Positions 1-64,000 of a stretch of DNA of 64,000 nucleotides are shown in pieces (position 1 is the stretch's first letter; each line of letters starts with the position of its first letter). The DNA is from Candidatus Omnitrophota bacterium (GTDB lineage: Bacteria; Omnitrophota; Gorgyraeia; Velamenicoccales; JABMQK01): the NCBI GenBank assembly GCA_028711115.1, contig JAQTSV010000001.1, positions 1,496,928 to 1,560,927 of the forward strand, in the 5' to 3' direction. A program made the translations under genes and the position numbers. Below the pieces are notes generated by a model. The model was given only the letters and a program-made list of their open reading frames with translations, searched no databases and had not been told where the DNA came from.

Positions 1-455
1 GCAACAACTTTTCCTTTATGAATTTTGAATATTCCTTTCTGCCATTCTTCTAAAATGCCACGGGATATGCCGTTACCTTGGTCTTTTATGGAAATTATAA
101 ATTTTCCGCCAGATACGGTAACGCTAACGCGTATTTCAAATTGAGATTCAACCGACTCCATCCTTCCCTGTTTTATTTCTTCATTAAAATATGCGTATAC
201 GGCGTCAATCGAATTAGGAATAATGTGCTGTATCATATCTACAATGACAAAATCTAGGTAAAAATTATTCTTTTGTTCTATTATGCGCATGCAGTATTTA
301 TATAATAGTTCTATTATTTTGCTGTAAGCATAAATATAGGAAGTAACTCTTAATTTACCTTTTATCAAACGATCTATCATCTCGGTTTTGCTGATTGACG
401 GGATAAAATAATAAAATATGGAAAAATCCATAACGAGGTTTTCATCCAAGTCGTT
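1..455 (-). other. Module: GHKL (histidine-kinase/HSP90-type) ATPase-like; its C-terminal end runs off the window
   Basis: Peptide IIPNSIDAVYAYFNEEIKQGRMES...ISIKDQGNGISRGILEEW has an N-box-like NSIDA and a DxGxG motif. It is a clear paralogue of 1494-2111. Upstream junction is SASSPM at 456-473. Confidence 0.5.
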
Positions 456-51400: not shown

Positions 51401-54400
51401 TTGCTTGTCTTAACAGCTTCCTCGTCCGATCCAATTGACCTTGTTTCTGTAAAAGTAAAATTCCCGTGCTAAAAATTGAGCCGGAGATTTCGGCATTGTG
51501 CTCATCCGTTGATTCGGTGATCGGCGAAGAAACAATTATGTCATCTTTGTACTGTTCGTAAAATCTGACAAAATTTAATACGCGTTTTCTCAGAAATTCT
51601 GCGCTTCTGCCTCTGGTAGCAGCAGCATCCAAGAAAGCACAGGTAATCAAGAAGGCAATTACTTCCTGGGCTCTGCCTGGTAATTCAATCCCTCTTACAA
51701 AATTCTGGACTATTCTGAAAGGTATCTCTCCTTGCGGCATTGCGTAGAGCGCGCCGTGGATCCTTATGACTTCCAATAATAAATCTCTATTTGGTAAATT
51801 GCTGGCTAATTCCTCGTGTTCCTCCAGCATCATTACTGACTCGGCTTCGTGTCCCGGATAAGTTATTAGCTTTACGCCAATCTCATTAGTGACTTCTGTG
51901 GGTTTAGTTCTTATCTTTCCTATATCATGTAAAACAATAAATGATTCGTAGAATATTCTGTTCTCCCGAGCAGCCAACATTAGCCTATATCTTAAAGGAA
52001 GTTCTTTGTATTTATCCTGGTTATTGAAAATATCAAGCATGGCCTGGAGATGGTCTCTGAGCAAACGCCCTTCTGCATGATAATTTAAAGGATGATTGGG
52101 TATATTAAAATCAAAATACCGCCTTAATATTGCCGGGATATGTAAATCTATTAATTCTGAAATATCGGTTACCGGCGAGCTCGACTGCGCATCCTGTTTT
52201 AATGCCGCCTCAATGGTAGGTATTAAGCTGGCAGTGCCTTTGAGTTCATAAATCTGTATGTCTCTTTCCATATGGATTATTGGATAGCCTGCGCTCTGCA
52301 ATGTAGTCAGGATGATGTCGCCGCCGACTAATTCAGTGAACAGTGTTTTTGAGCCTTTTTCTGCTTCCCTGACATATACAGGTACGTTGTAAGTCGAAAC
52401 ATTCTGTAAGGCATCCAGCACAAAGGCATGGTTAAATGTGGCTATGGGCTGAGTTTCAAATTTAATGTCCTTGAGGATTCTCTGCAAAGCCAGGCTTTCC
52501 ACAAAGACAACTTCTTTTGTATCCCTGTTGTAGAGTATTGTGCCGCCTTTTTGTATGTGTTTGGGATTTTGTTTGACGTATTCGCCTGCAGCATATAACT
52601 GGCCGTTGGCAAACTGGGGATGGACCATAGCCAAAAAGCCTTCGTTCCAGGGATCCTGACCCCAAGGCCTTAAGTCGCCGATGGTGCACTGGCTGACAAA
52701 TTTAACTCCTCTTTTTCTGGCGTATTCAAGAGAGGAGATGTTGAGCTGATGCAGCCTTCCATCTTTAGGCATAATGATATAGCCTTTGCCAACCAGGGTT
52801 GTTTCAAGCAGAGGTACGCCGTTACCGCCTGCCTTAAATATGCCCGGGGCAATGCTTACTGCCTGGCGTGTGGCAAGCGTGGGCAAGAAGACGGGATTTT
52901 TGCCCTGGGGCTGGATGATAAAACAAGCCCTGTTATAGCCAACGTATTCGTTTTGGATTAGTTCTTGGGCGATCTTTTCTTCATCGCCTTCTGTGCAGCA
53001 GAGGATGAATGTCTGTCTGGCGCGGGCTGCTGCTGTATCAAAATAGCGGGACTTCTGCTCCAATATCCTGGCTAAGATGGAAATATTACGCAAATCATTT
53101 CTTCTGTCTTTTAATCCTCTTATAATATCTACCTCTTCGGGTTTGATTTCTCCCTTGGCTAAAGCTCTTTGGAAGGCTTTTTCCAAAGCCTCATCTGATT
53201 CAGGGCTTAAGAGATGCCTTATGTCTAACAATATCTTGGGTACGCCCAATCCTAACCTGGTGGCGTCTCCGCCTGCAGGAATAAGTACTGCCCATTCGCC
53301 ACCGTAGAGGGATCTTCTGAAGGCAATCCTTGCTGCTTCATCGACCTGGCCTCTCAATACTGCGTCATTGCCGGGTGTACCTGCTAAGCTGACCAGGTTA
53401 GACAGCTGGGGATGTTCATTGAGTTCATCCAGATGATCAAAGATACCTTCGCCGTATTGTGATACCAAAGACACCAGGAGCGCCTGGGTGGCTATAAGCC
53501 ATGATTTATCATTAGTGTAGGAGCTGGCTGAGATGACCAGGGGCGAGGAGGAGCGACGCGTATCGGGCATATTTGGCTGCAAATCTGATATTTTTTCACG
53601 AAGACGTATCTCGCTTTCTCTTAAATTATTTGCGACTAAGGCAGAAACCTCTTCACGTCTAAAATCTTTTAGTCCATCTTGACCTAAGACTGCTATTATC
53701 CTATCCCTATAAAACCAATCTAACCAATTTGTTTCTATGTTATTAACCACTGCGTCCAATAACCCTAAGTGTTCATTGTATCTGTCTCCGTAAAATCCGG
53801 TTAATTGCGGTTTGCCTGCCAGCTTCTTCTTTTCCAGCCCTAATTGCCTGAATACTGCAGTATATATAGGTACCAATCTACCTATCGTAGGATTTCCATA
53901 GTCCAATTCTATTTCTTCTGTCAGACTTAAAAAGTAATAACCGTGTGCATACTTGGTATTGAATTGCAACCACTGGCTTATCTGATAAGCCCTCAAATAA
54001 ATCCTGGCTACAAATTCTGTAAGTAATTTTCCTCCTGTTAAATAGGACTCAAGCCAGCAAGTATGTATGCTGGCAGCTGCCCTATCTAAATTCAGATTGC
54101 CTTTGCCAATCAGTATAGCGCCTGAGAAAAATTCAACCGTTGCCTCAAATTCATCTTCTGATATTTTTGAGATATTCCACTGCTCATCTATAGTATGACT
54201 AAGAATTAACGGACGAACCTGTTCTGATGACTTATCGTCGCTCACCGGCGAACTGGACTGTCTTGCCTTTGCATCCTGTTTTAATGCCGCCTCAATGGTA
54301 GGTATTAAGCTGGCAGTGCCTTTGAGTTCGTGAATTGTAATCGGCCTTTCCATATGGGCAATCGGGTATCCGGCATTCTGGAGCACTGTAAGTATTATGT

Positions 54401-57400
54401 CGCCGCCGACTAATTCAGTAAACAACGTCCTTCTTCCTTGCGAATCCCTGTTTCCTTCCCTGATATATACAGGTATGTTGTAAGTCGAAACATTCTGTAA
54501 GGCATCCAGCACAAAGGCATGGTTAAATGTGGCTAAGGGTTGATTTTCAAATTTAACGGTTGCAAGAATTCTTTTCATAGCCAGACTTTCCACGAATACG
54601 ACTTTTCCTGTAAAAGGATTGTAAAGTACTGTGCCGCCTTTTTGTATGTGTTCGGGATTTTGTTTGACGTATTCGCCTGCGGCATATAACTGGCCGTTGG
54701 CAAACTGAGGATAAACCATAGCCAGGAAATCTTCGTTCCAGGGATCCTGTCCCCAAGGCCTTAGGTCACCTATGGTGCACTGGCTGACGAATTTAACTCC
54801 TCTTTTTCTGGCGTATTCAAGAGAGGAGATATCAAGCTGACGCAATGTCCTGTCTTTTGCAATAATATAACCCTTACCGATCAAGGTTGTTTCAAGTAAA
54901 GGCACGCCGTTACCGCCTGCCTTAAATATGCCCGGGGCAATGCTTACTGCCTGGCGTGTGGCAAGCGTGGGCAAGAAGACGGGATTTTTGCCCTGGGGCT
55001 GGATGATAAAACAAGCCCTGTTAAAGCCAAAGTATTCGTTTTGGATTAGTTCTTGGGCGATCTTTTCTTCATCGCCTTCTGTGCAGCAGAGGATGAATGT
55101 CTGTCTGGCGCGGGCTGCTGCTGTATCAAAATAGCGGGACTTCTGCTCCAATATCCTGGCTAAGATGGAAATATTACGCAAATCATTTCTTCTGTCTTTT
55201 AATCCTCTTATAATATCTACCTCTTCGGGTTTGATTTCTCCCTTGGCTAAAGCTCTTTGGAAGGCTTTTTCCAAAGCCTCATCTGATTCAGGGCTTAAGA
55301 GATGCCTTATGTCTAACAATATCTTGGGTACGCCCAATCCTAACCTGGTGGCGTCTCCGCCTGCAGGAATAAGTACTGCCCATTCGCCACCGTAGAGGGA
55401 TCTTCTGAAGGCAATCCTTGCTGCTTCATCGACCTGGCCTCTCAATACTGCGTCATTGCCGGGTGTACCTGCTAAGCTGACCAGGTTAGACAGCTGGGGA
55501 TGTTCATTGAGTTCATCCAGATGATCAAAGATACCTTCGCCGTATTGTGATACCAAAGACACCAGGAGCGCCTGGGTGGCTATAAGCCATGATTTATCAT
55601 TAGTGTAGGAGCTGGCTGAGATGACCAGGGGCGAGGAGGAAATGACGCTTGTTTTTTCAAAATCCAGAGAGCTGCTTGCCGTTCTATTCAAACGACTGGC
55701 GGGGGTGGTGCCAATGGCAGCCTCCGGATTATTGTTTATTGCTTTGAAATCTTCCGCCACGGTGGAATTCAAAACAACTGGTAAAAATCTATTTGTTAAA
55801 TTATTATTGGTTATAGGTGAGGATGATGACGAGATGAATTCATTTGCGTAATCTGCGGTTATAATTCTGCGTTCTCTGTGGTTCTGACGGCCAGCCTCGA
55901 TGGGTGAAGAGGCGCCGCCTGTAATCGGCCAGCCACGGGCTGAATTGCGTTCCGAAACCAAACCTTTATCAAATGGACTGGAGGATTGCACTTCCTGCTT
56001 CAGCACCCGATAGGCTTCTTCCACTTGCTGTGGAATATTAACGTACACGAGAAATCCCCTGCCTTGTGGGCCATATACATCAGGATGCAAACGATAAACT
56101 TCGCCGATAGCCATAGCAAGCATATATCTGAATTCTTTCTCCTCCATTGCTGCAATATTAGATATTTGCGGAGTAAAGCTGATAAGCGTTAATTTCTGCC
56201 ATTTTCTATTCTCTGCTTCATTAATAATTTTATCAAACGTTGCCATTGCCCTTCTCTGGAGAGCCGGATGCTGCAAGACGACAATGCTTCTAACGGCCTC
56301 ATTGCTGCCTTCCAGGAGCGCTAATGTATTGCGGATATTTTCTTCGCTGTTAGTTGAAGTGGTGTCAATGGCTACAAAATCTTCTTCCGGAATTCCATAC
56401 AGATACAAAATATCCCGATAAATTTCTGCTTCTGATTTTTCTTGTAAGCCTGCTATTTTATCTGCATACTGAGAGCGCTGGATATTCTCTCTTAATAATT
56501 CGGTCTCTCTGCCAATGCCTCCAGCGATTAAAATCCTTCTCGTCAATCCTTGTTTGTGAATGCGCGCTGCTTCTTCGATAACTTCAAGACGGCTACTGCC
56601 CAAAATTAAAAGAATATCAGCGCTTTGTATGCCAAACCTTTCAAATAAAGCTTTTGCGCTCATCTGTGCAACATCCCGCTGCGTAAGAAAATCAAGTAAC
56701 ACCTGTGTCTTGACCCTTAAGTCCACTGTCGGGCTTGAGCTTGTGAAATTATTTCTATCATTTGCTCTGATCGGGCTGGAATTGGTAGAATCATTTCTGT
56801 TTTCTTTACTCTGATTTGTGAGCGGACTGGAGCTTTTCTTCTTTTCTTTATCTAGTAACTCCCGTTTCTTTGCTTTGGCTGCTCGCTTTACTGTTCGATC
56901 TGAATCGTTTAGCATAGCATCTGTGATTTCAATAGATTGGGTAGCAGCTTTGATCTCAACTATATCCAATATCTTCTTTACTTCTTGTAAAGCTTGTTTC
57001 AACTCAGCGTGTTTGCCGGCATTAAAGTAAATAAGCGCTTTGTGCATAAAAGAGTTAAACCTGACTCTATCGCGATCACTCATTTTATCTTTATTTTTCT
57101 CGTATTTGTTAATGAAATCTAGATTTAAGGCTGTTGTATATCTAAGAATATATACCGCTGCAGCATCTAAAGACTGCCTTGCATATTCATAAGACCCATC
57201 GCCAAACCTTATCAGTATATTATGGAAAAATGCCTGGAGAGTGTTTCTATCGGGATTATCCTTAACAGGCATATCATTTTCTTTGCTGGCGTAGTCTTTG
57301 ATAAGCGCTATATATTCTTCTTTCAATTTATTGGCTGTCTTAAGCTCTATAATTTTACCTATCGCAATAAACACTACTATTAAACCTCCGACCACTAATC

Positions 57401-60400
57401 CTATATTGCCCAGCGCGTTCATAGATATTTCTTCTACTATGCCTGGAGCAGGAATAAATACAAATAAATCAGGCGTAGGAACTATAACAAAGATTAAAAA
57501 GGCAAACATGGTTATTATAAAAAACCTAAAGAATATCCAAGTTATTCTTGATAAAACTTTATCTTTTATTTTGGAAACAACAAATAACATAATTATTGCA
57601 GCTATTGCAACAGGCCCCAAGAATATTGCAAAGTTAGCAATTAATACGCTTAATAGTTTTGTAGAAATTCCTGTGATAATAGCTCCTCTCAGAATATAGA
57701 GTAAAACTCCGCCTAAAAACATGCCAGCTACCCCTACAACTGCATCTCCCCAACCCTTCCATATTCTCTTACCAGGTTTTGCTCCGACTAAGAATGGGCC
57801 GATAACCATAGAAATGCCGAAGAAGTAAGAAATAAATAAGCAGATGGCATTGGTGAAATCCAAGCCTACTGCGAAAGCAAATATGGTAATAGAGCTGATA
57901 AAAACACCGAGTATAACCTCGCCTCTGAGAATATTAAGGTATCCGCCTTTCATAAACTTACCAATAAAAGGAATTCTGCCGGGAATAGAACTGCTCCCAA
58001 TAAGCAGACCTAAGGTTAAACAAATGGGGATCATAATAGAAACGATTGGCGCAACCGCACCGAATTTCATTGTAATAGCTATACCCGCGGCGAGACCAAA
58101 AATTGCGCCTACTATTGGCAGTATAATACTGCGCATCCAATCCGCCTTAGTTGGTTCTCCCATACTAGTATCTTTCTTGACTACCCAGTATTCCTTCAAT
58201 ACGTTGCAATTATCATAGCCTGCAATAGCTCCAGACGTTACAAATATCCAAGGCACTCCTTTATAGCTTCGTATTTGAGCCAAGGTTTCAATGGCAAAAC
58301 GATGAGCGAAAAGTAATATATCTCCGGGCCGCTCACTAAACCAGCGGGCAGTAGCCATCCAAGAATTCGTAAGCACAAGACCAAAGAATGCGAAAATAAT
58401 GATAGTGGGCCAGCTCGCTCCAACCACAAAAGCTAATAAGGCTGCTACAGTCATACCAACAAATGCTTTCCAGGTCTTTATGCCGGACATAGCTTTTGCA
58501 GTAGCGCCCAATCCGTTCAAAGCTGCTATCTGGTTAAATAATGTTCCGATGATAAGAAAGATAAATGAAATTCCTACGAATGGCAGTATATCTAAAATTA
58601 TACCCACAGGTATAAAAATGATATTCAATAATGCCAATGGCATAATCGCATAGAAATCTTGCACATTGCGCCTTGCCTCTTTTTCAAACCACGACTCAGG
58701 CCCTAATTCGCCTATATTCTGCAGAATAAAATCGCTTAACATATTGGTTAAGCCTTCTGACCAGCGCACTGTAGCACTGCCTTCTTCGCCAGGGCTAAGC
58801 CATTCCCTTAATTTAGACCATATAGCTTCTGATAACGCGAATTCCGGCCTCTGGCCTAAACCAATGGCATTATGTGTTTGTGCCCAGATATCAGCGGTAT
58901 CTTCGCTGGGATGCGGTAAGTGCGGGCCAAGGCCTATAATTCCGTAACGATACCAATCGGCATATTCAGAGAAATTATATATCGTTTGTGCATCTATTGT
59001 AATAGGCATAACAGGAAACATATAATTGAGCATTGCCGTTAAATATCCTTCCGGACCCTGATCCATCATTCTCTCGAAGTTACCCCAACCAGAGCACAAC
59101 TTATCGTTTAAAGACCACATAGAATATCCGTGCCCGCCTTCGACTAACCACGACATCCTGCCCATATGCATAAGCCTGTTAGAGGTATTACGGGAACTTG
59201 TCGTTAGAATAAGATTGTCGTTGCTCATCATCCTCTTTAAATCCCGGATAAATGCGGGTAAATCCAGGCAGTTACTATTACGGTCCATAATGGCTAAAAT
59301 CTTAAAATTCTTAACTATCTTGTGTGGCAATGTTTCCATGCTGACCATTGCTCCGGATTTAGCAGCAAATACAGTGAATGTATGTATAAAATAGCTGCTG
59401 CTATTATCATTGCCTAACAAATAATCCACCAGCTTCATCATCTTCATATAATTAGCAAACTGGGGTGGTACTTCTTTGCCTTTTTTAAACAATTTTTGCC
59501 AGTTTGAAGTAGGTATAAAACAGAAATTATTTCCCCAGCCTTGTGCCCTTATCTCTTTTAGCATTGCCATAATATTAACAAGCACATCGAATGAGCCCGC
59601 GCCTCCGCCTAACGGCTTTACACCGCCAACTTTGATAAAGAAAAATGTCTTTACAAAGAAGGCTATTTTAAGTTTCTCTTTTTGTGCTTTTTTAGTCTCT
59701 TCGTCGAATTCTTCGTCTAATTTGATTTTGCAATTCTCTGGAATTTTATCATCTTCTATCTGGTCTAAAATACAAAGATCAATCCCGGATGCTTTTTCTC
59801 TCTCGGCTAATAACTTAAGGCATTCTTCTATTAGCTTCCAGAAATCTTCATCTTTCATATTTGCCTGTAGGCCAAGCTTTATGGCTGCCCATTCTCTTAA
59901 TTGTTTTAGCGCAACTTCGGCGCCCAAATCGTCGTTTTCTAATAACCAGTTTAAAGCCCTGATTATAGATTCTGTATCTGTGCCGGCTCCATCGTTGGCG
60001 AGGAAATGACCGACGTAATTTAATAAAATCTTTTTACCATCGCGTAAAAAGCCCTTGATTTTATCTTCATCAATCTTTACTCTTTTCATTGGGCCAAAGA
60101 TTATACCGGTCAGATACTGTATCAATGACCATATACCATAATGCATAGTAGTCAAAATGAGCAGCGTAGTAAGGTTGGCGCCGATTAGCCTTGTAATCAA
60201 GCCGCTTGCGACGTGGTCTATAAACCAAGGCATACCCACCCAGAACATCAATAAACCCAATGCATTAAATATAACATTATGGGCGATAATCATGCCTATT
60301 GTCCTGTTTCTGCCCGGCCCGATTGTCGGTCTCCAATCACGATAGATAGAAAGGGCGATGACAGAATGTTTCCAGAATAAGTAACCATACGCTTCCAATG

Positions 60401-63400
60401 CGAATATCGTAAATAATATAGTTTTAAATAAGAACGCGCCTGTAGTTATCGCTGCCGGCAAATTAACGACTACAAGATAAGCAAATAACGCAAAAGTCAA
60501 TCCTAAGGCTATCCTTAATAGTCTTAAGAATGCATTTTTACCCATACCTAAATATCTGAACCGGGAAAGCTGGTTCCACTCTACTATTGAGGTAATTACT
60601 ATTAATACAAGCGCCAGAATTATAAACGGCTGGGAGATAAAACTTAAACCCATGGTATGAGTTAATCCCAAAAGAACGCTGCTGGTTAAACCAAGCATTA
60701 AGAAACGCAGGTATTTTGAAGCTATGAATAATGCGAAAGCATGGATGGACTTAGTGCCCAAGCCCAACATCCTCCTTATTGAACCAAATCTTAAATTTCC
60801 TAATTTCTTGAAACCATGCAAAGTAAAGAAGTTATTCATGTGCTCTTGGTTTACAGCGCCGTTAATAATACCCATTTCTGCAAGAACTTTTCCAAATAAG
60901 CCATTATCTTTTCTTCTTAAAGCATCTCTTAAAACTATGAAGGCATTGTCAAAATACGCTGTTAATTTAGCATAAATTTCGGGATCAGATGTGCCTTTAG
61001 CTTCATACACGCTATCTTTGGATCCACGCGAGAACTCAGCGCCTGCAATTCTTGATGCCTCTCGCAAATATTCATCAAAACCGGAAAGTATGCGTTCTTT
61101 CTCACTAGCGTCTTTTGTCTTAAGCCACTGTATGATTAACTTTAATACCTGTTCTGCGTGAGTAAAAAATTGGATGGTCGGATCGTTACAAACCACTGAC
61201 TTCTTGCCAACCGGCGTAGATAAAGGCGACGATGACTCTGTCTTTACGTCAAGAATCTTTCTTATTCTCTCATGGGCTTCTTCTACGACATCAGGGTCTA
61301 TGTCAGGTTTTCCTTTGTTGGGCTTGATTTGCGTCTCAACAAACTTCTCCCATCTTTTCTTATCTCTGAAGTGTTCTTTCAATAATATCAATATAGGTAT
61401 AAGGACTGAAATTACTAACAAAATGATAAAGAATGCACCTGTTGTTATGGACTTTACGGAAGGAACAAGGGCAGGCACGGATTTGCCGTATTCGTTAATA
61501 TGGACCATGCCGTTTTCCCAATAGTCACTGCCGAACCAAATATTAGCAGCTGACCAGTACTGATCCTCTCTGCCAGTTTGAGCATCATATTTTACCTTTA
61601 ATAAATGAGCGATTGGCTTTCCGTATTCATTGTATGCATCCGAAGGTTTCAGATATGGCACGCTTAAATCATAAATAACTCTTTTCTGATAAGGCAAGAA
61701 ATACCTTATTGGATGAGCAATCTTTTGTTCATATGTCTCGCCATATAAACGATTATATATAGTCACAAATTCCTGTATTTTTAAATTTCCGTTTTTAACT
61801 GAATAGAAGAACCCTTCTTCATTGCCTTCTCTGCCATATTTTTCGAAAGTTTTTTCTGTGCCTGGCTCAACCGATAACCAATTCAGATGGAATAATCTAT
61901 TGCGATTTAACCAATAGTCTTTAATTTTGAAACTTTTGATTCCAGGCAATATTCCGAAAGGAGCTCTATTGACGGAATCTTTCTCAAGCCACCACTGATT
62001 AAATGTAAGTTTCTTTTCGCTTTCGCTTACTATCCTGTTAGTCATAACCGACCTGCCCAGCGGATCGCCTGGGATAAGATATTCAGAGGTGGGTTTTCCA
62101 TGATAAATATCGGAGAAATATGTTTCGCCTGTAACTTCATCCGTTCCTTTGAAGAATGGCGTATCTCTGACTATTCTTAATTGCGAATTGCTTGTAATGC
62201 CTATCAGCGCTAAATCGCTCCAGATATCGCGGTTATATTCTTCAGAATAACTATTTACAACGCCAGAGGGTATTGCCTCTTGCATTCTTTCCATAGGCAT
62301 TGCATCGTAAACATTGGATATCTGGTCACCCAAGACTACTCTATAACTACGCAATGAACTCCTGATATCCCAGTTTACCGTTACAGATTTGTAGAGCTCA
62401 TGTTCTGAGCGGTCGGAAACCAATATCCTGCCGAACGGGTCGCCTGAAACTCTGTAATCAACCCAGTTGTTTGTTAATACGCCTTCCGGAAAATCTTGGC
62501 TATAGAAATATTGTGTGACTTCTTCGCGCTGCAATCTTGTCTGGTCGCCTATGGCCATACCTCTGTCTGTGGCCCAATCACTTCTAATGCGATAAGGCAA
62601 GTTAGCAACTGAACCCAGCACGCCTTCAACACTTGTTTCATTGGGATATTTTATTTCTAAGATAAGATTCCCTTCATAAGATACAGAAGCAGAATTTGGC
62701 AGTGTGGGATTATATCCAAAATGATTTTCTATAACCCATTCCCTAAAGCTACGCGTGAGCCTTAACCCCAAGAGATTATAGATATCTGTGCGTTTAATGT
62801 TCTCGATTAAATCTGTCGTCTCCCAAGTTGTCCTTCCGCCAACCATACCGCTGGTTCGTTTTGCTTTCTCAAATGGCACTAATTTTGGCGCCGGAATATT
62901 CGGGATATTGACGAAAACATCCAGGTCAAGGTATTTAGACTCGCTTGACCAGGCCATATTCAAGAATAAGGCAAATACTCTACCGTCATAATCATAAGTG
63001 GTACTACCGATAAGCCTGAAGTCTCCGGTTGCCGGGTTCCTCTGATAAGATTCTTCGCTAAGAACTGCACCTGTAGCCACATCAGTTATGCGCGCGAAGT
63101 TAAACATCTCATCGCTTGCGAGCTTTTTGACATTCCACTTTGTCTCGCCCATGTAAATTAGGTCTTCTCTGTTGCCTTCTTCATAAAGCTGCCAGTCGCC
63201 TGAAAATGCATCGGCAGAAGTCAATCCCTTGCCTTGGGCGCCTTGTTTATCGTAATAGTTCCATGACTTACTTGCGCGCCTCATATATTTCTGTAACATT
63301 ATCTTTTCATAATCAAGTTCGCCGCTGGCGTCATAACAAGTATAATCATAAACGCTCTTTATGCGCATATTGCCTTGCTGGGTGATTTCCCACAAAGTCG

Positions 63401-64000
63401 CGCCTGTCGAGAATTCCGTTACTCTTAAGAATTCCTTGGCTAATTTTGCTGGCTCACCGGAAATTTCCGGCATCTCAAACTGCTGCACGCGCCATACAGT
63501 AACTTCGCCGAATTGAGCATCATTCATAATGCCGCTTATCTTTGTGGCTTTCTCAGCCACATACTTTTTGTCGCCCACAACAAAGAATGTCCAGGATTCT
63601 CGGGATAAATTAAATGCCCTGTCAGAGAAATCTCCTCTGGAGCTCATAGTCCTCTGAGAAACTCTATCGAATACATCTACACTTGCTCCCTCTGTTGGAT
63701 TTACGCCGCTGTCGCCAAATGTATTTACTACCAGCCTGTGCATAAAAGGATGATTGGAATCGTCTAAGGCTTGTGGCTCAGGCAATTCAATTGCCTTGAG
63801 CTCATCAGGAATGTCTGTGTCGCGCTTATCAGGATGCCACTCTAAATACTGCCAGACTAAAGTCTGTTTGGGTATGGCGAACTTCGTATAAGTGCCGTCT
63901 GCATTTTCGCGCACCTGCATTCTGAAGTAACCATAGTTTTCTTCTCTGTCTGCGTCATGCTCGTAGTAGCTTCCGGCTTTATACCATTCGTCAATTGCCT
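1..64000 (-). CDS. Internal fragment of a single giant ORF (about 21,333 codons in the window, truncated at both edges); modular polyprotein-like chain
   Basis: The minus-strand frame with codons on plus triplets starting at 3k showed no TAA/TAG/TGA wherever I hand-translated it (both window edges and more than 40 internal stretches). The supplied ORF track has no entry in this frame. All 62 S-S-P-[VIL] junction motifs and more than 30 recognisable enzyme motifs share this one frame. Confidence 0.85.
474..1280 (-). other. Module of unknown function (269 codons)
   Basis: Bounded by junction motifs SSSSPL (1281-1298) and SASSPM (456-473). No family motif recognised. Confidence 0.5.
1306..1460. 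repeat. Structured in-frame nucleotide element, copy 1 (candidate RNA motif or in-frame palindromic insertion)
   Basis: A 155-nt core (CCAGGCCC...AAATCTATT) is shared with 45127-45281 and, as 128 nt, with 50908-51035. Helices are supported by compensatory changes between copies. The hairpin with the invariant AGGGG loop has stem GAGTTCG/CGAACTC at 1329-1347, GCTCG/CGAGC in copy 2 and GCTTATCTTTG/CAAAGATAAGC in copy 3. A second hairpin is AAAGCC/GGCTTT (1356-1378) here and AGGC/GCCT in copy 2. A long hairpin is capped by the invariant CCTGCCACGGTAGG (1422-1435). The element is bracketed by junction motifs at 1281-1298 and 1479-1493. Confidence 0.7.
1494..2111 (-). other. Module: GHKL ATPase-like (paralogue of 1-455)
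   Basis: ILPNSIDATYAYFNEEIKQGRMKS...ISIKDQGIGISCDILEGW...LGRAGIGV gives N-box-like, DxGxG and G-rich motifs. Bounded by SSSPL (2112-2126) and SSSPI (1479-1493). Confidence 0.5.
2127..2255 (-). repeat. Mini-spacer family W-P-I-[ST]-G-G...S-R-Q, copy A
   Basis: Peptide LDQLTASRLNSGLSDWPISGGVSTGMSRQDSELSAIRYPLHAI. The nucleotide blocks CTGACGGC and GCCGCCTGnAATC are shared with 45336-45461 and 55833-55970. It lies between junction motifs at 2112 and 2256. Confidence 0.55.
2271..2933 (-). other. Module: class I SAM-dependent methyltransferase-like
   Basis: Glycine-rich motif I, LIIIEAGTGQGKVAYEIG, followed by VIGIDLY (acidic motif II). Bounded by ASSPV (2934) and ASSPI (2256). Confidence 0.5.
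2949..4550 (-). other. Module: large Rossmann methyltransferase-like protein (possibly MidA/NDUFAF7-type)
   Basis: VVEWGIGKGDFAHDFLDKIKE...YFLCDFSQKML resembles the SAM-binding motif of DUF185/MidA-type methyltransferases. The family assignment is tentative. Confidence 0.3.
4566..5264 (-). other. Module: GNAT N-acetyltransferase
   Basis: EIYRGRGLGKVIVARVIE matches the acetyl-CoA-binding motif (R/Q-x-x-G-x-G/A). Verified from nt 4921-4965. Confidence 0.6.
5280..5924 (-). other. Module of unknown function, family X copy 1
   Basis: ITKLEELYGREFEFFYS...QGRYYIATLQ...INEPILIIKI...RFYMRLPAAPR is a paralogue of 7743-8369, with the same start and end peptides. Confidence 0.5.
5940..7727 (-). other. 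Module: FabD-like acyltransferase domain (about 6760-7727) fused to a uridine-kinase/PRK-like P-loop kinase domain (about 5990-6620)
   Basis: YTGESFGITTSAVAAGAIS resembles the GHSxG nucleophile elbow of malonyl-CoA:ACP transacylases (nt 7321-7380). PFVVTICGISGSGKTAV is a Walker A motif (nt 6541-6590). There is no junction motif between the two domains. Confidence 0.5.
7743..8369 (-). other. Module of unknown function, family X copy 2
   Basis: ITKLEDLYGREFEFFYSMEP...QGRYYIATLQRGS...INEPILIIKI...RFYMRLPAAPRN is a paralogue of 5280-5924. Confidence 0.5.
8385..9290 (-). other. Module of unknown function (302 codons)
   Basis: Bounded by SSSPV (9291) and SSSPI (8370). No motif recognised. Confidence 0.45.
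9306..10433 (-). other. Module: unknown N-terminal domain plus a C-terminal ComEA-like helix-hairpin-helix
   Basis: IIERRSNGAFKSWEDLQKRVDGIGSATIEKMKQ (about nt 9340-9480) matches the ComEA/HhH pattern. The N-terminal part is unassigned. Confidence 0.35.
10449..11282 (-). other. Module: GHKL serine-kinase/anti-sigma-factor-like ATPase
   Basis: ITHEMITNAIIHGN (N-box) and VSVYDEGVDGKPI (DxG-type) resemble the RsbW/SpoIIAB class. Confidence 0.4.
11298..12077 (-). other. Module: N-terminal XRE-type helix-turn-helix plus an unknown domain
   Basis: LRQVTALAGFSIKEFCSRLGMSEDCLYRKLSGETAFAPEEL fits the Cro/C1 HTH pattern. The module ends with a doubled junction, MSSPL-R-SSSPV. Confidence 0.45.
12171..13166 (-). 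other. Module: GT-B glycosyltransferase, family 9 (heptosyltransferase)-like
   Basis: CIVTMDTSIAHIGYLLNIPSVVITT (nt 12301-12360) resembles the GT9 C-terminal DSGxxHLAAAxGxPxVxLFG block. Confidence 0.45.
13182..13895 (-). other. Module: SAM-dependent methyltransferase of the (D/N/A)PP(Y/W/F) class (HemK/N6-adenine type)
   Basis: VLDMGTGTGILGIRS is motif I. KIIFAPPWFNKP is motif IV, verified at nt 13501-13560. Confidence 0.65.
13911..15500 (-). other. Module: 2,3-bisphosphoglycerate-independent phosphoglycerate mutase (iPGM), apparently full length
   Basis: LAIFDGMGIG, GAMGNSNDGHKTIGTG (verified nt 15281-15315) and GIADHGNAE (verified nt 14121-14145), with overall collinearity to GpmI. Bounded by ASSPV (15501) and TSSPL (13896). 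Confidence 0.8.
15516..17726 (-). other. Module of unknown function (737 codons)
   Basis: Bounded by SSSPI (17727) and ASSPV (15501). It has a coiled-coil-like middle. The HELLEH string is not a true HExxH motif. Confidence 0.4.
17742..19544 (-). other. Module: HAD-superfamily (type IIB-like) phosphatase domain (about 18500-19544) plus an unknown C-terminal domain (17742-18480)
   Basis: LTDIDDTVLESG is the DxDxT motif I, verified at nt 19491-19530. LFCGNELFEGGNDNML is motif IV. A possible degenerate junction, RNSPNI, lies at 18483-18497. Confidence 0.55.
19560..20675 (-). other. Module of unknown function (372 codons)
   Basis: Bounded by SSSPI (20676) and SSSPI (19545). No motif recognised. 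Confidence 0.4.
20691..23261 (-). other. Module: 2-phosphoglycerate-kinase-like P-loop domain (about 21800-23261) fused to a HAD phosphatase domain (20691-21760)
   Basis: RPTIILVAGASGAGKSKIASHIAKRLSIPTCFSTDVGAREGFRK (nt 22381-22440) resembles archaeal 2PGK (GGxSGxGKST...STDxxRE). WLTDIDDTAVESG and GGNDNML are HAD motifs. There is no junction motif between the domains. Confidence 0.5.
23277..27473 (-). other. Module (1,399 codons): PEP-utilising swivel-like domain, PPDK/PEP-synthase N-terminal ATP-grasp domain and a second 2PGK-like P-loop domain
   Basis: LTRGGAPLDHAQLTLKSAGRPSVIV is swivel-like (about nt 26830-26910). GGVFVVVRSSSLYEDRPEAAMAGRF is the PPDK_N signature, verified at nt 25381-25440. 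RPTVVLIAGASGTGKSTIS...STDAGAREAVRK lies at about nt 23900-24000. An acidic/lysine-rich linker sits at about 24440-24540. Confidence 0.55.
27489..30233 (-). other. Module: unknown N-terminal region plus tandem nitroreductase-fold halves (about 27489-28700)
   Basis: LSRRSVRKFDPDKGV (verified nt 28561-28620) and EAARWAPTAKNLQ are classic nitroreductase-family motifs. Confidence 0.55.
30249..30569 (-). other. Module: RNHCP-type zinc-ribbon domain (107 codons)
   Basis: FICEHCG...[28 protein letters not shown]...YRCQECG, verified at nt 30440-30500. Confidence 0.55.
30585..31535 (-). other. Module: carbamate kinase, apparently full length
   Basis: GGIVTHGNGPEAG (verified nt 31340-31375), VICVGGGGIPV (verified nt 30950-30985) and AAVIDKDLATA. 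Confidence 0.8.
31551..32231 (-). other. Module: transglutaminase-like / papain-like Cys-His-Asp fold (candidate peptidase)
   Basis: Codon-by-codon translation gives YPFVCMHSSFALARIISEKFGLP...(about 60 aa)...KHCWIVLILDSQEVLFIDATLQQF. This is the C...HxW...D arrangement typical of transglutaminase-core cysteine peptidases. Confidence 0.35.
32250..33335 (-). other. Module of unknown function (362 codons), possibly Rossmann-like
   Basis: ILYYPGSGDDAQALVRLL...VVVNDVD is weakly methyltransferase-like. A 17-codon spacer between junctions 33336 and 33402 precedes it. Confidence 0.25.
33417..33995 (-). other. Module: GHKL ATPase-like
   Basis: LAAMDRGDGF (DxGxG) and WQGYGMGILRAMEG (G2 box-like). Confidence 0.35.
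34011..34946 (-). other. Module of unknown function (312 codons)
   Basis: Bounded by SSSPL (34947) and SSSPI (33996). It contains RFDHHQDMNW. No confident assignment. Confidence 0.35.
34962..35612 (-). other. Module: class I SAM-dependent methyltransferase
   Basis: VADLGGGNGKWAFLAARYF is motif I, followed by VVSMEW. Confidence 0.5.
35628..37364 (-). other. Module: glycoside hydrolase family 13 (alpha-amylase superfamily) enzyme
   Basis: All four GH13 conserved regions are present in order: VIFDFVTNHIA (nt 37021-37056), NGGLRADLAH (nt 36651-36686), LITETYE and VHFTENHDE (nt 36291-36322). Three of these were verified at nucleotide level. Confidence 0.75.
37380..39107 (-). other. Module of unknown function (576 codons), possibly GT-B-like
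   Basis: [33 protein letters not shown] weakly resembles N-termini of GT-B enzymes. Not secure. Confidence 0.2.
39192..39797 (-). other. Module of unknown function (202 codons)
   Basis: Bounded by SSSSSPM (39798-39818) and SSSSPV (39174-39191). Confidence 0.4.
39819..41435 (-). other. Module: histidine kinase core (HisKA + HATPase) fused to a cytidylate-kinase-like domain with an altered P-loop
   Basis: The H-box is LRDLLHDIKQPLQAV (verified nt 41380-41430) and the N-box is ILNAMKHC. The kinase-like part is LFVACGLMASGRRIAAKALAAEYGLRYLNFGF (nt 40481-40525), where Walker A reads GxxxxGRR instead of GK[ST]. Confidence 0.5.
41451..41909 (-). other. Module of unknown function (153 codons)
   Basis: Bounded by SSSPI (41910) and ASSPI (41436). 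Confidence 0.4.
41925..43460 (-). other. Module: alpha-helical repeat protein of unknown function (512 codons)
   Basis: Helix-rich, Leu/Glu/Arg-rich composition with no catalytic motif. The plus-strand ORF 41971-42537 is its antisense shadow. Confidence 0.35.
43479..44312 (-). other. Module of unknown function, family Y copy 1
   Basis: RRIYLGPEGKIE...CQDCEDRH...LVYAIGKGFRGD...INDVFIDDGNIKGM...IWMYLAGFHAAQ is a paralogue of 50028-50876. Confidence 0.5.
44328..45101 (-). other. Module: N-terminal transmembrane helix plus GHKL ATPase-like domain
   Basis: The hydrophobic stretch is LPATYFLTAALSLNILLVITALIIKI (about nt 44960-45060). ELVANAFWG (N-box-like) and TGLGLIFVYRIFVKELGGSVKIGN (G2 box) follow. 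Confidence 0.45.
45127..45281. repeat. Structured in-frame nucleotide element, copy 2
   Basis: Same 155-nt architecture as 1306-1460: AGGGG-loop hairpin GCTCG/CGAGC at 45152-45166 and the invariant 14-mer CCTGCCACGGTAGG at 45243-45256. Bracketed by junction motifs at 45102 and 45321. Confidence 0.7.
45336..45461 (-). repeat. Mini-spacer family, copy B
   Basis: SHNPIIDYLAETGLSPRSEGVIPGGRLVSSAIEASRQEINSN shares CTGACGGC and GCCGCCTGGAATC with the other copies. It lies immediately upstream (in ORF sense) of element copy 2. Confidence 0.5.
45477..47609 (-). other. Module: GT35 alpha-glucan (glycogen/maltodextrin) phosphorylase-like, with the PLP lysine replaced
   Basis: ALASGGLGFLAGETF is the GGLG motif, verified at nt 47461-47500. 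TREAAGTSDQRPAFGGGLNIAT aligns with EASGTSNMK-LALNGA, but the Lys position is Arg (AGA at 46209-46211, verified). Confidence 0.6.
47625..48437 (-). other. Module: sigma-70 region 4-like HTH followed by helix-hairpin-helix (RpoA-CTD-like) repeats
   Basis: LSQREIEVLELRNGTRDGIIHTLEEIGQQKGYEMTREAVSQTEEKALQKI, verified at nt 48181-48240. Downstream are LPLTPGAKKALRS and similar HhH-like segments. Confidence 0.5.
48453..49961 (-). other. Module: radical SAM enzyme
   Basis: TKGCPRGCLFCFVD contains the CxxxCxxC cluster motif, verified at nt 49615-49660. Confidence 0.6.
50028..50876 (-). other. Module of unknown function, family Y copy 2
   Basis: Collinear with 43479-44312 (PRRIYLGPTGKVD...CPDCENRH...LVYAIGKGVYRD...IWMYLVGFHAAQ). 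Confidence 0.5.
50908..51035. repeat. Structured in-frame nucleotide element, copy 3 (shorter; lacks one hairpin)
   Basis: The AGGGG-loop hairpin has an 11-bp stem, GCTTATCTTTG/CAAAGATAAGC, at 50924-50950. The invariant 14-mer lies at 50998-51011 in a different codon phase from copies 1 and 2. Bracketed by junction motifs at 50877 and 51045. Confidence 0.7.
51060..51518 (-). other. Module: coiled-coil segment (153 codons)
   Basis: Heptad-like, charged sequence LRQARAGLEGARANIRESNKKYQRELPKIRQRLNQLK...EQLEQEIEVCKQRI. Confidence 0.4.
51534..52169 (-). other. Module: HD-domain phosphohydrolase
   Basis: FIVLHDIGKIRTKP contains the HD dyad, verified at nt 51901-51960, with an upstream His (NYHAEGR). 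Confidence 0.55.
52185..53537 (-). other. Module: UDP-sugar pyrophosphorylase (UDPGP-family nucleotidyltransferase)-like, copy 1
   Basis: WAVLIPAGGDATRLGLGVPK (verified nt 53250-53300) matches the L-x2-GG-x-G-T-R-L-G signature class. This is a tandem paralogue of 54258-55625. Confidence 0.55.
53553..54242 (-). other. Module of unknown function (230 codons)
   Basis: Bounded by SSSPV (54243) and SSSPL (53538). It sits between the two UDPGP-like copies. Confidence 0.4.
54258..55625 (-). other. Module: UDP-sugar pyrophosphorylase-like, copy 2
   Basis: 54904-55640 is almost identical to 52816-53552 (offset 2,088 nt). The C-terminal half is more diverged and contains a 2-codon indel. Confidence 0.55.
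55641..55811. repeat. Possible degenerate fourth copy of the structured element
   Basis: CTTCCGCCACGGTGGAATTC and AAAAATCTATTTGTTAAATTATT resemble CCTGCCACGGTAGGTGGAATC and ACAAATCTATTATTTAAGGTAATT of copy 2, and the peptide has (L)TNRF versus LNNRF. The 5' half is not recognisably conserved. Confidence 0.3.
55833..55970 (-). repeat. Mini-spacer family, copy C
   Basis: DKGLVSERNSARGWPITGGASSPIEAGRQNHRERRIITADYANEFI contains an internal ASSPI junction at 55899. It lies just upstream (ORF sense) of the degenerate element copy, the same order as at 45.1-45.5 kb. Confidence 0.5.
55986..56726 (-). other. Module: DUF218 / YdcF-SanA-like domain
   Basis: ADILLILGSSRLEVIEEAARIHKQGLTRRILIAGGIGRET...EAEIYRDILYLYGIPEEDFVAIDTTSTNSEENI fits the DUF218 pattern. 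Confidence 0.45.
56835..61220 (-). other. Module (1,462 codons): polytopic membrane protein with a large soluble loop resembling glucan-synthase (GT48/FKS-like) catalytic regions
   Basis: There are roughly 20 hydrophobic helices at about 57300-58700 and 60150-60800. The loop LPHPSEDTADIWAQTHNAIGLGQRPEFALSEAIWSKLREWLSPGEEGSATVRWSEGLTNMLSD (nt 58780-58960; SEDTADIW verified) resembles the FKS block SEDIFAG...GKGRD...GEQxLSRD. The family call is tentative. Confidence 0.35.
61236..64000 (-). other. Module (more than 920 codons; N-terminus beyond the window): beta-rich, aromatic/Gly/Asn-rich probable extracytoplasmic domain ending in a single TM helix
   Basis: The TM helix is ITTGAFFIILLVISVLIPILILL (about nt 61390-61460). 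The remainder lacks recognisable catalytic motifs. The downstream junction is SSSPL at 61221-61235. Confidence 0.35.

Follow-up and report, generated by a model that had tools for sequence, protein, structure and literature searches.

One open reading frame across the window

The 64,000-nucleotide stretch analysed here, called the window (Candidatus Omnitrophota assembly GCA_028711115.1, contig JAQTSV010000001.1, positions 1,496,928 to 1,560,927), contains only a giant open reading frame (ORF) on the minus strand and no second gene, and along this ORF a pentapeptide, the junction motif, recurs between enzyme modules. Six-frame translation gives no stop in the 21,332 codons of the minus-strand frame read from plus triplets 3-5, 6-8 and so on to 63996-63998, compared with 706, 1,362, 1,129, 1,594 and 1,707 stops in the other five frames, where the longest open runs are 86-263 codons. 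At 3.3%, the lowest stop frequency among those other frames, the chance of an open run of this length is about e^-700. At least 63,996 nt are thus free of stops in a frame truncated at both edges, where a single stop-free ORF of more than 20-30 kb is the mark of an Omnitrophota giant gene. An earlier sequence-only reading had claimed that the whole window is one ORF with neither start nor stop and had proposed a six-frame count that includes edge-truncated ORFs, and the count bears the claim out. It had also supposed that a caller requiring a stop would leave the ORF unreported, in agreement with an ORF that runs off both edges where edge-crossing ORFs go unlisted, and the plus-strand ORFs that it took for antisense shadows (30832-31356, 41971-42537, 47500-48189 and 59476-60009) are present and have low-complexity translations rich in S, L, I and F, as such shadows do. 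In the numbering used below, residue i (counted from 0) lies at plus coordinates 63996-3i to 63998-3i.

The frame is protein-coding throughout. All 24 Pfam/NCBIfam domain envelopes found in scans of five overlapping chunks lie in it, so that the enzyme signatures noted in the sequence-only reading are real and confined to this one minus-strand frame. Seven pairs of paralogous modules have ratios of non-synonymous to synonymous substitution (dN/dS) of 0.19-0.61 with dS up to 1.4, which indicates that the frame has long been under purifying selection as protein. The window has a G+C content of 41.4%. Its plus-strand GC skew stays below zero over nearly the entire stretch (cumulative -3.96), which makes the coding strand G-rich for almost its full length. 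Searches of the window for tRNA and tmRNA genes and for Rfam families at gathering score gave no match.

That the long frame is an artefact, either of a chimeric or collapsed assembly or of untranslated sequence, is very unlikely. Giant genes with many repeats pose difficulties for assembly (West-Roberts et al. 2023, doi 10.1101/2023.11.21.568195), and one duplicated 2-kb block of the window reaches 96% identity over 300 nt. However, a random join would preserve both strand and frame in just one case out of six, and the ~700-1,700 expected stops would not be removed by any join, while the same junction motif and codon signature run across the whole window, the modules are under purifying selection and the same architecture is found in independent assemblies from other samples. 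The window is very probably a piece of a real giant gene of the Omnitrophota type.

Membrane cluster and enzyme modules

The layout of the frame is given in Table 1. Residues 0-843 contain no hydrophobic segment and no junction motif, and window residues 1-696 align at 51% identity with residues 1481-2173 of P0121, a 3,602-aa protein that takes up the entire 10.8-kb contig of GCA_042570265.1. P0121 has a weak PF26410 GH5_mannosidase match upstream of the aligned part, and residues 0-843 would, by this homology, continue its GH5-like, beta-rich region. If the architecture of P0121 is shared, the gene would continue for at least about 1,480 codons upstream of the window, through the region with the weak GH5 match. 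The first hydrophobic helix spans residues 844-866 and is followed by KEHFRDKKRWEK, and because of this sequence and the positive-inside rule the N-terminal side, residues 0-843, is probably outside the cytoplasm. Of 25 hydrophobic segments overall, 19 lie between residues 844 and 2198, in a cluster that holds one junction motif only (residue 921). A soluble insert of ~300 residues within the cluster (residues ~1480-1790) has a homologous stretch in P0275 (domain E 3.8e-11), and the membrane region itself has weak homology to the membrane region of the same protein. A glucan synthase of the FKS/GT48 type (callose-synthase 'SEDI') was considered for ~57336-60700 and is unsupported, with no Pfam match at E <= 5 and no PDB sequence match.

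From residue 2389 onward, ~19,000 residues are nearly devoid of hydrophobic segments and carry all of the enzyme domains. More than 20 distinct families tile the polypeptide and none dominates by copy number, the most repeated being HATPase_c (three to four copies) and methyltransferases. Besides the modules in Table 1, the frame encodes DUF218, sigma-70 region 4, an alpha-glucan-phosphorylase C-terminal part, a cytidylate kinase, an alpha-amylase-like segment, several S-adenosylmethionine (SAM) methyltransferases, HHH, GNAT and Methyltransf_28 domains. Several complete proteins stand in the one frame, namely iPGM, a UDPGP-like fold, a carbamate kinase that extends to the profile end, and RNHCP. 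The iPGM module aligns with residues 2-511 of the 511 residues of Geobacillus iPGM (PDB 1ejj, E 1.7e-120) and retains GNSxxGH, the serine motif, as well as the metal-ligand motifs DMVGH and ADHGNA; judged by these residues it is complete and apparently intact. The first of two UDPGP-like copies matches PDB 4bqh with profile A2 (E 1e-7), and its AlphaFold2 model (pLDDT 79, pTM 0.84), in which residues 1-5 (SSSPL) form a coil ahead of the first strand, retrieves UAP structures in Foldseek with probability 1.0 over ~470 columns. Module 2786-3246 is accordingly a full-length UDP-GlcNAc/UDP-sugar pyrophosphorylase-like enzyme. The tandem block that holds both copies has 78-96% nucleotide identity at 2.09-kb spacing and is the only place where assembly collapse is conceivable; over window positions 52000-56000 the G+C content is 0.445-0.459 and the GC skew is about 0.

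The 2-phosphoglycerate-kinase-like (2PGK) modules stand a few modules upstream of the complete iPGM and after the N-domain of a phosphoenolpyruvate (PEP) synthase-like enzyme, for which the PEP synthase NCBIfam models score 84-92 bits, under their cut-offs. This arrangement suggests a phosphoglycerate-centred set of activities. 2-Phosphoglycerate kinase is known mainly from archaea. A third copy of the paralogous block associated with the 2PGK-like modules lies downstream, in the 18500-24100 region (residues ~13300-15170).

Table 1. Features of the window, in plus-strand coordinates
Feature	Coordinates	Strand	Basis or remark
Single ORF, 21,332 codons	3..63998	minus	open at both window edges
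Motif-free region upstream of membrane anchor, residues 0-843	61467..63998	minus	P0121 homology
Hydrophobic transmembrane-like cluster, residues 844-2220	57336..61466	minus	~17-19 segments, hydropathy scan
Module string, residues 2389-21331	3..56831	minus	61 inter-motif segments
UDP-sugar (UDP-GlcNAc) pyrophosphorylase-like (UDPGP-like) copy 1, residues 2786-3246, 461 aa	54258..55640	minus	profile, fold
UDPGP-like copy 2, residues 3482-3937	52185..53552	minus	91% identical to copy 1, dN/dS 0.21
Radical SAM	49221..49712	minus	PF04055 38.1 bits
Carbamate-kinase-like, residues 10817-11138, 322 aa	30582..31547	minus	TIGR00746 151 bits, profile 24-309/309
RNHCP, 112 aa	30246..30581	minus	PF12647 95.5 bits, profile 2-88/90
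Nitroreductase	28134..28637	minus	PF00881 89.7 bits, profile 1-167/167
PEP-utilising enzyme N-terminal (PPDK_N)	24825..25898	minus	PF01326 118.9 bits
2-Phosphoglycerate-kinase-like P-loop modules, residues 13304-13537 and 13856-14052	21840..24086	minus	NF003259 211.5 bits, NF008995 118.5 bits
iPGM, residues 16162-16696	13908..15512	minus	TIGR01307 501.7 bits (cut-off 330.65), profile 3-504/504
HemK2/PrmC-like SAM methyltransferase	13179..13907	minus	directly after iPGM; NF011529 64.2 bits, PF06325 39 bits
Junction ASSPV	15501..15515	minus	7 residues ahead of the residue aligned to stand-alone iPGM residue 2
Junction TSSPL	13896..13910	minus	directly after last iPGM residue
Composite mini-element, residues 20836-20906	1278-1490	minus	SSSPI-[NRFxSQDSTYRGRFWNLFAKxQVLLGT..]-VSSPLE-[..EGPGxxx]-SSSPL
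Composite mini-element, second copy, residues 6222-6299	45099-45332	minus	same layout; partly also residues 4314-4370
Motif copies	61221-61235, 56820-56834, 56769-56783, 55971-55985, 55899-55913, 55812-55826, 55626-55640, 54243-54257	minus	
Motif copies	53538-53552, 52170-52184, 51519-51533, 51045-51059, 50877-50891, 49962-49976, 48438-48452, 47610-47624	minus	
Motif copies	45462-45476, 45321-45335, 45156-45170, 45102-45116, 44313-44327, 43461-43475, 41910-41924, 41436-41450	minus	
Motif copies	39798-39812, 39174-39188, 39108-39122, 37365-37379, 35613-35627, 34947-34961, 33996-34010, 33402-33416	minus	
Motif copies	33336-33350, 32232-32246, 31536-31550, 30570-30584, 30234-30248, 27474-27488, 23262-23276, 20676-20690	minus	
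Motif copies	19545-19559, 17727-17741, 15501-15515, 13896-13910, 13167-13181, 12153-12167, 12078-12092, 11301-11315	minus	
Motif copies	11283-11297, 10434-10448, 9291-9305, 8370-8384, 7728-7742, 5925-5939, 5265-5279, 4551-4565	minus	
Motif copies	2934-2948, 2256-2270, 2112-2126, 1479-1493, 1335-1349, 1281-1295, 456-470	minus	

A pentapeptide at the module boundaries

In k-mer counts over the whole ORF, the tetrapeptide SSSP occurs 43 times against ~0.26 expected from composition, and SSP[ILVMF] 63 times against ~1 expected, and all 65 SSP tripeptides stand in the SSP[ILVMF] context or a near variant of it. The residue before the SSP core is S in 43 cases and A in 11 and otherwise T, N, V, G, C or M, giving the consensus (S/A)SSP(I/L/V) and, at the DNA level, TCC-(TCC/AGC)-TCG-CCG-(ATA/GTG/CTG). 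The sequence information is limited to the 15 nt of the motif and the flanks carry none. The motif divides the polypeptide into 61 inter-motif segments, of which 46 are protein-sized (112-1,404 aa) and 15 are mini-segments (6-62 aa); with the latter included, the mean of 308 aa and the median of 259 aa correspond to ordinary bacterial protein size.

The junction motif very probably marks module boundaries. Downstream of the membrane region lie 62 copies, none of which falls inside the 4,004 domain-covered residues, where 13.1 would be expected (P ~4e-7). The iPGM is bracketed exactly, in the order ASSPV-TK-[iPGM residues 2..511]-TSSPL, and a neighbouring series reads NSSPL-[carbamate kinase, 322 aa]-ASSPI-[RNHCP, 112 aa]-SSSPI. 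Alignments between paralogous modules begin at module residue 1, right at the motif. In the same manner, segments of P0270, P0272, P0273 and P0274 match the UDPGP-like module (461 aa) from its residue 1 to residues 456-458. P0271 matches it from residue 6 on, and the truncated P0275 covers residues 1-126 only. These homologues end before the next motif and have neighbours that differ from protein to protein, including PGI, PGK, ROK/HAD, radical SAM and a membrane region. The element that precedes the UDPGP-like module in the six proteins, all from metagenome-assembled genomes (MAGs), is SSSP[ILV] in four, SSSAV in one and nothing recognisable in one. By these alignments the motif delimits the stretches that are duplicated within the gene as well as those that are homologous from one genome to the next.

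The motif in other genomes

Scanning of GTDB representatives with the carbamate-kinase module recovered L007 (CAZFPS010000008.1), where a frame that stays open for at least 4,971 aa is followed by a 1,689-aa ORF and 27 copies of SSP[ILVM] are distributed across the two. The orthologous kinase module of L007 is 57% identical to that of the window and has the motif at both ends, and almost all other L007 modules differ from those of the window. Motif copies in the large ORFs of four further loci likewise exceed expectation, with 14 in 5,054 aa at L086 (GCA_040960315.1; 0.29 expected), 7 in 2,830 aa at L087 (GCA_016214285.1; 0.11 expected), 7 in 4,611 aa at L088 (GCA_018812325.1; 0.17 expected) and 4 in 3,809 aa at L089 (GCA_041645095.1; 0.13 expected). 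For L086 and L087 together, 21 motifs in 7,884 aa of large ORFs compare with 2 in 9,193 aa of ordinary neighbouring genes. Judged from these sequences, the motif is a lineage-wide feature of multi-module ORFs, found in at least six other MAGs and widespread, not universal.

A second motif family is present in two other Omnitrophota ORFs. R[SA]ExR occurs 24 times in P0132 (7,560 aa, GCA_041674705.1) at a spacing of ~35-660 aa and seven times in P0004 (1,806 aa, GCA_016206995.1); flanking genes, 2,741 aa in total, contain no copy. The P0132 locus (L005, 1-22702) begins with a called GTG start followed by a twin-arginine-like SRRAFLTGLG, and since the frame stays open to the contig end the true N-terminus of P0132 is probably missing; 17 residues separate its last motif of the RSExR type (RAELR) from the stop codon. 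The closest carbamate-kinase module, 60% identical and found in P0001 of L006 (CAZZAL010000003.1), is flanked by AASSSEKY and VVSSSKKV, not by SSP[ILV]. All three SSS occurrences in 2,604 aa of L006 have the form SSS[EK][RKY], which may be a diverged variant of the junction motif.

Two of the relatives, P0274 (L086, 10001-15967) and P0272 (L087, 10001-18490), are complete proteins of 2-2.8 kaa with an N-terminal signal or anchor. They have in common an N-domain of ~400 aa and a C-terminal tail of ~60 aa (..IEGFIPxIINITPVTxLPLLLG..), between which glycolytic modules (PGI, PGK, PGM and UDPGP-like) are separated by SSSP[VI]. By sequence they would be small versions of the architecture of the window, and with their topology glycolytic enzymes would be located outside the cytoplasm. 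Omnitrophota giant genes are described as having genes of type II secretion/type IV pilus systems and of glycoside hydrolases in their neighbourhood. At L086, pilin-like genes and secretin genes are found 5-9 kb downstream of a motif-bearing ORF, and beside them, ~7 kb downstream, is a gene for an Rce1-like intramembrane protease of the CPBP family (23072-24052). The Rce1-like protein is a possible candidate for the processing enzyme.

Codon usage within the motif

The motif serines are encoded by codons of the TCN and AGY families alike, and the nucleotide word occurs in one frame only, in 13 of 13, 16 of 16 and 10 of 10 cases for three longer patterns, with 0, 4 and 0 antisense copies. Mixed serine codons together with a single-frame word indicate selection on the peptide. 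In addition, codon choice within the motif is strongly biased. TCC encodes the first serine in 33 of 43 copies (p = 2e-30), the second is TCC in 26 and AGC in 14 of 56 (p = 5e-11), the third is TCG in 34 of 56 (p = 5e-37) and the proline is CCG in 34 of 56 (p = 1e-6), while ATA, GTG and CTG are favoured for the fifth residue. TCG is the rarest serine codon in the ORF (10.7%). The preference for TCC-TCG-CCG is also found in L007 at 38.6% GC (p = 8e-12 and 8e-7) and, at 52% GC, in L086 (10/14, 10/14 and 8/14) and L087 (6/7, 6/7 and 6/7), while the junction codons of L088 and L089 are more variable. Shared ancestry does not explain the signature, because the modules are only ~45-57% identical in protein. 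The 8-mer TCYTCGCC has 15 forward copies in large ORFs, against one forward and two reverse copies in 30.6 kb of other sequence. Conservation of synonymous codons at specific positions in genomes of 39-52% GC is not explained by a protease site and points to a constraint on RNA, DNA or translation. A constraint below the peptide level would thus act on the motif beside peptide selection, and the leading guess for it is a translational pause on UCG-CCG-(Pro).

Several other nucleic-acid signals were considered and set aside. The minimum free energy of 60- and 100-nt windows centred on the motif equals that of controls (p = 0.65 and 0.77), with a paired fraction of 0.58 vs 0.55, so that an RNA or DNA hairpin is not indicated. 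Antisense genes starting from the GGAGGA opposite TCCTCC are ruled out by downstream plus-strand ORFs of merely 1-82 codons, and palindromes of a junction with the inverse word GGCGAGG come to one case only (residue 4666) within 21 nt of a junction. Methionine is rare at motif position 5 (2-4 of 63), which does not fit relic start codons, and the restriction of the 8-mer to large ORFs and to one frame does not fit a genome-wide DNA signal such as Chi or an uptake sequence.

A reading in which the motif is primarily a DNA-level adapter, with in-frame recombination (site-specific or by microhomology) at 12-15-nt junctions shuffling cassettes and the peptide merely tolerated, is improbable, and it accounts for a number of the observations. 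Duplicated modules start exactly at the motif and paralogues have the same codon variant; one module has different neighbours in different genomes and is always cut at the motif; synonymous positions are conserved in a nucleotide word limited to multi-module ORFs; and the mini-segments between adjacent junctions resemble deletion remnants. As gene-sized unrelated units with a recurring short delimiter and an order that varies between genomes, the modules also resemble integron cassette arrays. In contrast to integrons, the cassettes of the window are fused in frame without stops and their delimiter is under peptide selection, as the TCN/AGY serines and the one-frame word show. Furthermore, the 64-kb window contains no integrase domain, no attC-type imperfect inverted repeats or other recombination structure (one weak inverted pair being present), and no hairpin signal or excess folding energy at the junctions. 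The RSExR codons are variable in P0004, and 12-15 nt is short for homologous recombination.

The favoured fifth codons ATA, GTG and CTG, together with a stop (TAA/TAG/TGA) in the +1 frame over codons 5-6 at 28 of 62 window junctions (45%, vs 28% at control I/L/V/M codons, p = 0.0065), raise the possibility that separate proteins arise by recoding at the junctions, through a frameshift, immediate termination and possible re-initiation at the I/V/L/M codon. The excess of +1 stops is, however, not replicated in L007 (37% vs 34%), L086 (0/14), L087, L088 or L089, and the junctions have no slippery sequence, no upstream Shine-Dalgarno-like sequence and no RNA structure, and methionine is rare at position 5. 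Recoding is already largely refuted by the five other loci and carries next to no weight.

Relation to described giant genes

The closest relatives of four separate regions of the frame are P0121, P0270-P0272, P0275, P0004, P0129 and P0132, which mostly fill their contigs. NCBI names these nearest homologues, at 44-58% identity, as proteins of Candidatus Omnitrophota/Omnitrophica MAGs; an identical protein is absent from a 5.8-billion-protein database, and a search with the first 600 residues recovered the contig in neither the GTDB-representative nor the JGI metagenome collection. Taxonomic placement in this analysis is based on the homologues and not on marker genes, of which the window has none, and the related MAG of L007 is labelled 'uncultured Planctomycetia'. 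With purifying selection on the frame, contig-filling Omnitrophota ORFs as homologues and a further upstream extension in P0121, the proposal of the sequence-only reading that the window is a slice of an Omnitrophota-type giant gene longer than 64 kb holds. Its remark that chains built from whole enzymes are not usually described no longer holds, as such proteins have been reported both by West-Roberts et al. (2023) and by Nielsen & Lui (2026, doi 10.64898/2026.06.07.730766). The junction motif had escaped that reading.

The gene is a further example of the giant multi-enzyme genes already described for Candidatus Omnitrophota. Most Velamenicoccia genomes hold ORFs of more than 20 kb (Seymour et al. 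2023, PMC10066038), and ORFs of up to 85,804 aa have been reported, with 'Archaeovorins' carrying glycosyltransferase, methyltransferase, hydrolase and NUDIX domains (West-Roberts et al. 2023). A class of 'multi-enzyme metabolic clusters' of up to 147,155 aa has methyltransferase, HATPase_c, GNAT, radical SAM and sugar metabolism as its commonest families (Nielsen & Lui 2026), and the domain repertoire of the window matches this class. Like other Omnitrophota giant genes, including that of Velamenicoccus archaeovorus LiM (39,678 aa), the window has an ORF of tens of kb, a cluster of transmembrane helices, many enzyme domains, some old duplications and no Pfam annotation over most of its sequence. 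Genes of the 'Archaeovorin' type are characterised by a divergent SecA_DEAD/SecA preprotein-binding domain and by an N-terminal C39 or S8 peptidase close to a signal peptide. Unlike 'Archaeovorins', the window has no SecA_DEAD (PF07517, no match at E <= 0.01), C39, S8, dockerin or TSP3 domain in its 21,332 residues, the N-terminus and possibly a SecA_DEAD domain lying outside the window.

The giant gene by itself is therefore one more case of a phenomenon published since 2022-2023, and the value of the locus lies in its junction grammar. Cleavage of such proteins has been proposed with the cleavage points stated as unknown (West-Roberts et al. 2023); both preprints and a 2024 survey of huge proteins state whether or where such proteins are cleaved as unknown, and the text of Nielsen & Lui (2026) is without the terms 'SSSP', 'linker', 'polyprotein' and 'junction'. 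The junction pentapeptide and its codon signature appear unreported, no mention of them having been found in the papers covered by the literature search. A pentapeptide at essentially every module boundary gives a rule for cutting the proteins into foldable, annotatable units and exact peptide termini to seek in existing proteomic data, and the motif type is a marker that can be correlated with protease families across complete genomes. Behind the conserved synonymous codons there may be a mechanism peculiar to very long genes, acting on translation or at the nucleic-acid level.

Reading of the junctions

The best overall explanation, which is probably correct, is that the window is an internal slice of an Omnitrophota multi-enzyme giant gene whose junctions are read by a common factor. 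Under this explanation the gene would encode a membrane-anchored giant polyprotein, the junctions would be recognised by a common trans-acting factor, most likely an endopeptidase, and the precursor would be cut into individual enzymes, by analogy with viral polyproteins or MARTX toxins; at each joint, translation may pause on the rare but conserved codon pair UCG-CCG. A recognition site for a co-evolving trans factor is suggested because the pentapeptide is the same across unrelated enzymes and is replaced by another in another lineage, and cleavage is favoured because the motif lies 3-10 residues from natural enzyme termini, as in viral polyproteins and MARTX. The identification of the motif as a cleavage site is nonetheless tentative and falls somewhat short of an even chance. 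The broader proposal, in which SSP[I/L/V] and RSExR are both processing sites, dozens of enzymes including glycolytic ones are made as a polyprotein for a lineage-specific protease, UCC-UCG-CCG causes pausing and modules are shuffled in frame, is speculative and rather unlikely to hold in full.

Several observations weigh against the proposed mechanism in addition to the synonymous codon conservation described above. The 21,332 residues contain no protease domain or protease signature (HExxH, GDSGG, G.S[MA]A), and the protease may be encoded elsewhere. Proline directly after the serines is disfavoured at P1' by many endopeptidases. No enriched 4-mer motif is found in P0122-P0130, P0181, P0215, L006, L009 or L019, and within the window some boundaries are without the motif, such as PPDK_N/2PGK inside module 12171-13575. 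The transmembrane-like segments were called solely by a Kyte-Doolittle hydropathy scan (19-residue window, threshold 1.7).

A rival reading is an uncut, membrane-anchored multi-enzyme scaffold, in which the motif would be a Ser/Pro hinge with UCG-CCG pausing for module folding, or a site of modification or chaperone binding. Nearly half of such proteins have been read as membrane-anchored with their domains in the cytoplasm (Nielsen & Lui 2026). An uncut scaffold fits the lack of a protease in the window, and the TCC-TCG-CCG preference in four genomes of differing GC, with the rarest serine codon prevailing at the third position, fits a signal at the level of translation. Against it, linkers of at most 10 residues between complete enzymes, some of them normally dimeric (nitroreductase, carbamate kinase), would be awkward, and RSExR has no common codon preference between its two genomes, so that a pure codon-pause role is not general. 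To our knowledge, the flexible linkers of other giant multidomain proteins have no fixed pentapeptide. The uncut scaffold is rather unlikely. Cleavage, an uncut scaffold and a DNA adapter are not mutually exclusive.

Comparison with other multi-module systems

The polyprotein proposed here may be compared with those of picornaviruses, flaviviruses and potyviruses, which likewise encode many complete proteins in one ORF with a boundary motif of about five residues and unconserved flanks, and in which co-evolution of motif and reader by lineage is expected, as for SSP[ILV] and RSExR. In contrast to these, the gene in the window is cellular, one to two orders of magnitude longer and without an identified protease module, and its processing is only proposed; viral cleavage sites are not known to conserve synonymous codons. 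The MARTX toxins found in Vibrio and its relatives are giant, membrane-associated bacterial proteins used against other cells, whose unrelated effector or enzyme modules are freed by cleavage of the linkers. The array of unrelated modules resembles these toxins, whereas the modules themselves are metabolic enzymes of the housekeeping type in place of toxins, the window is more than four times larger, and Pfam scans of the 21,332 residues found no RTX (HemolysinCabind) repeats and no C80 cysteine protease domain. PKS/NRPS megasynthases are likewise encoded by very long bacterial ORFs of recurring enzymatic modules, which are steps of one assembly line joined by linkers without a fixed pentapeptide, whereas the modules of the window are unrelated stand-alone enzymes; no KS, AT, ACP, C, A or T domains were found in the same scans.

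Other recurring elements

Further repeated elements were observed in the window and its relatives. The two copies of the composite mini-element in Table 1 are 64-70% identical with a dN/dS of 0.61, and the element could serve either as a small adapter domain or as a composite spacer. A double junction, 'SSSPATEIGEASSSLRSSSPLE', at ~49962-50024 (residues 4659-4678) recurs at residues ~3660-3720 of the L007 ORF as 'ESSSPAVNGEASSSL...SSSPVE' and 'SSSPATKLGGASSAL', and the DNA of the double junction holds the single case of the inverse word GGCGAGG mentioned above. At L003 (1-15028; GCA_964493115.1, CAZBNF010000014.1; also P0215) there are four consecutive large ORFs of 856, 1,432, 1,800 and 708 aa with similar signal-like N-termini, three of which are joined by overlapping stop and start codons. 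Its protein P0017 contains an in-frame repeat of ~116 nt in three to four copies that encodes DAPKPxxDSGxSIxGPAQDTxESSxxSPxLL and seems to represent a third type of recurring element between modules, longer than the other two.

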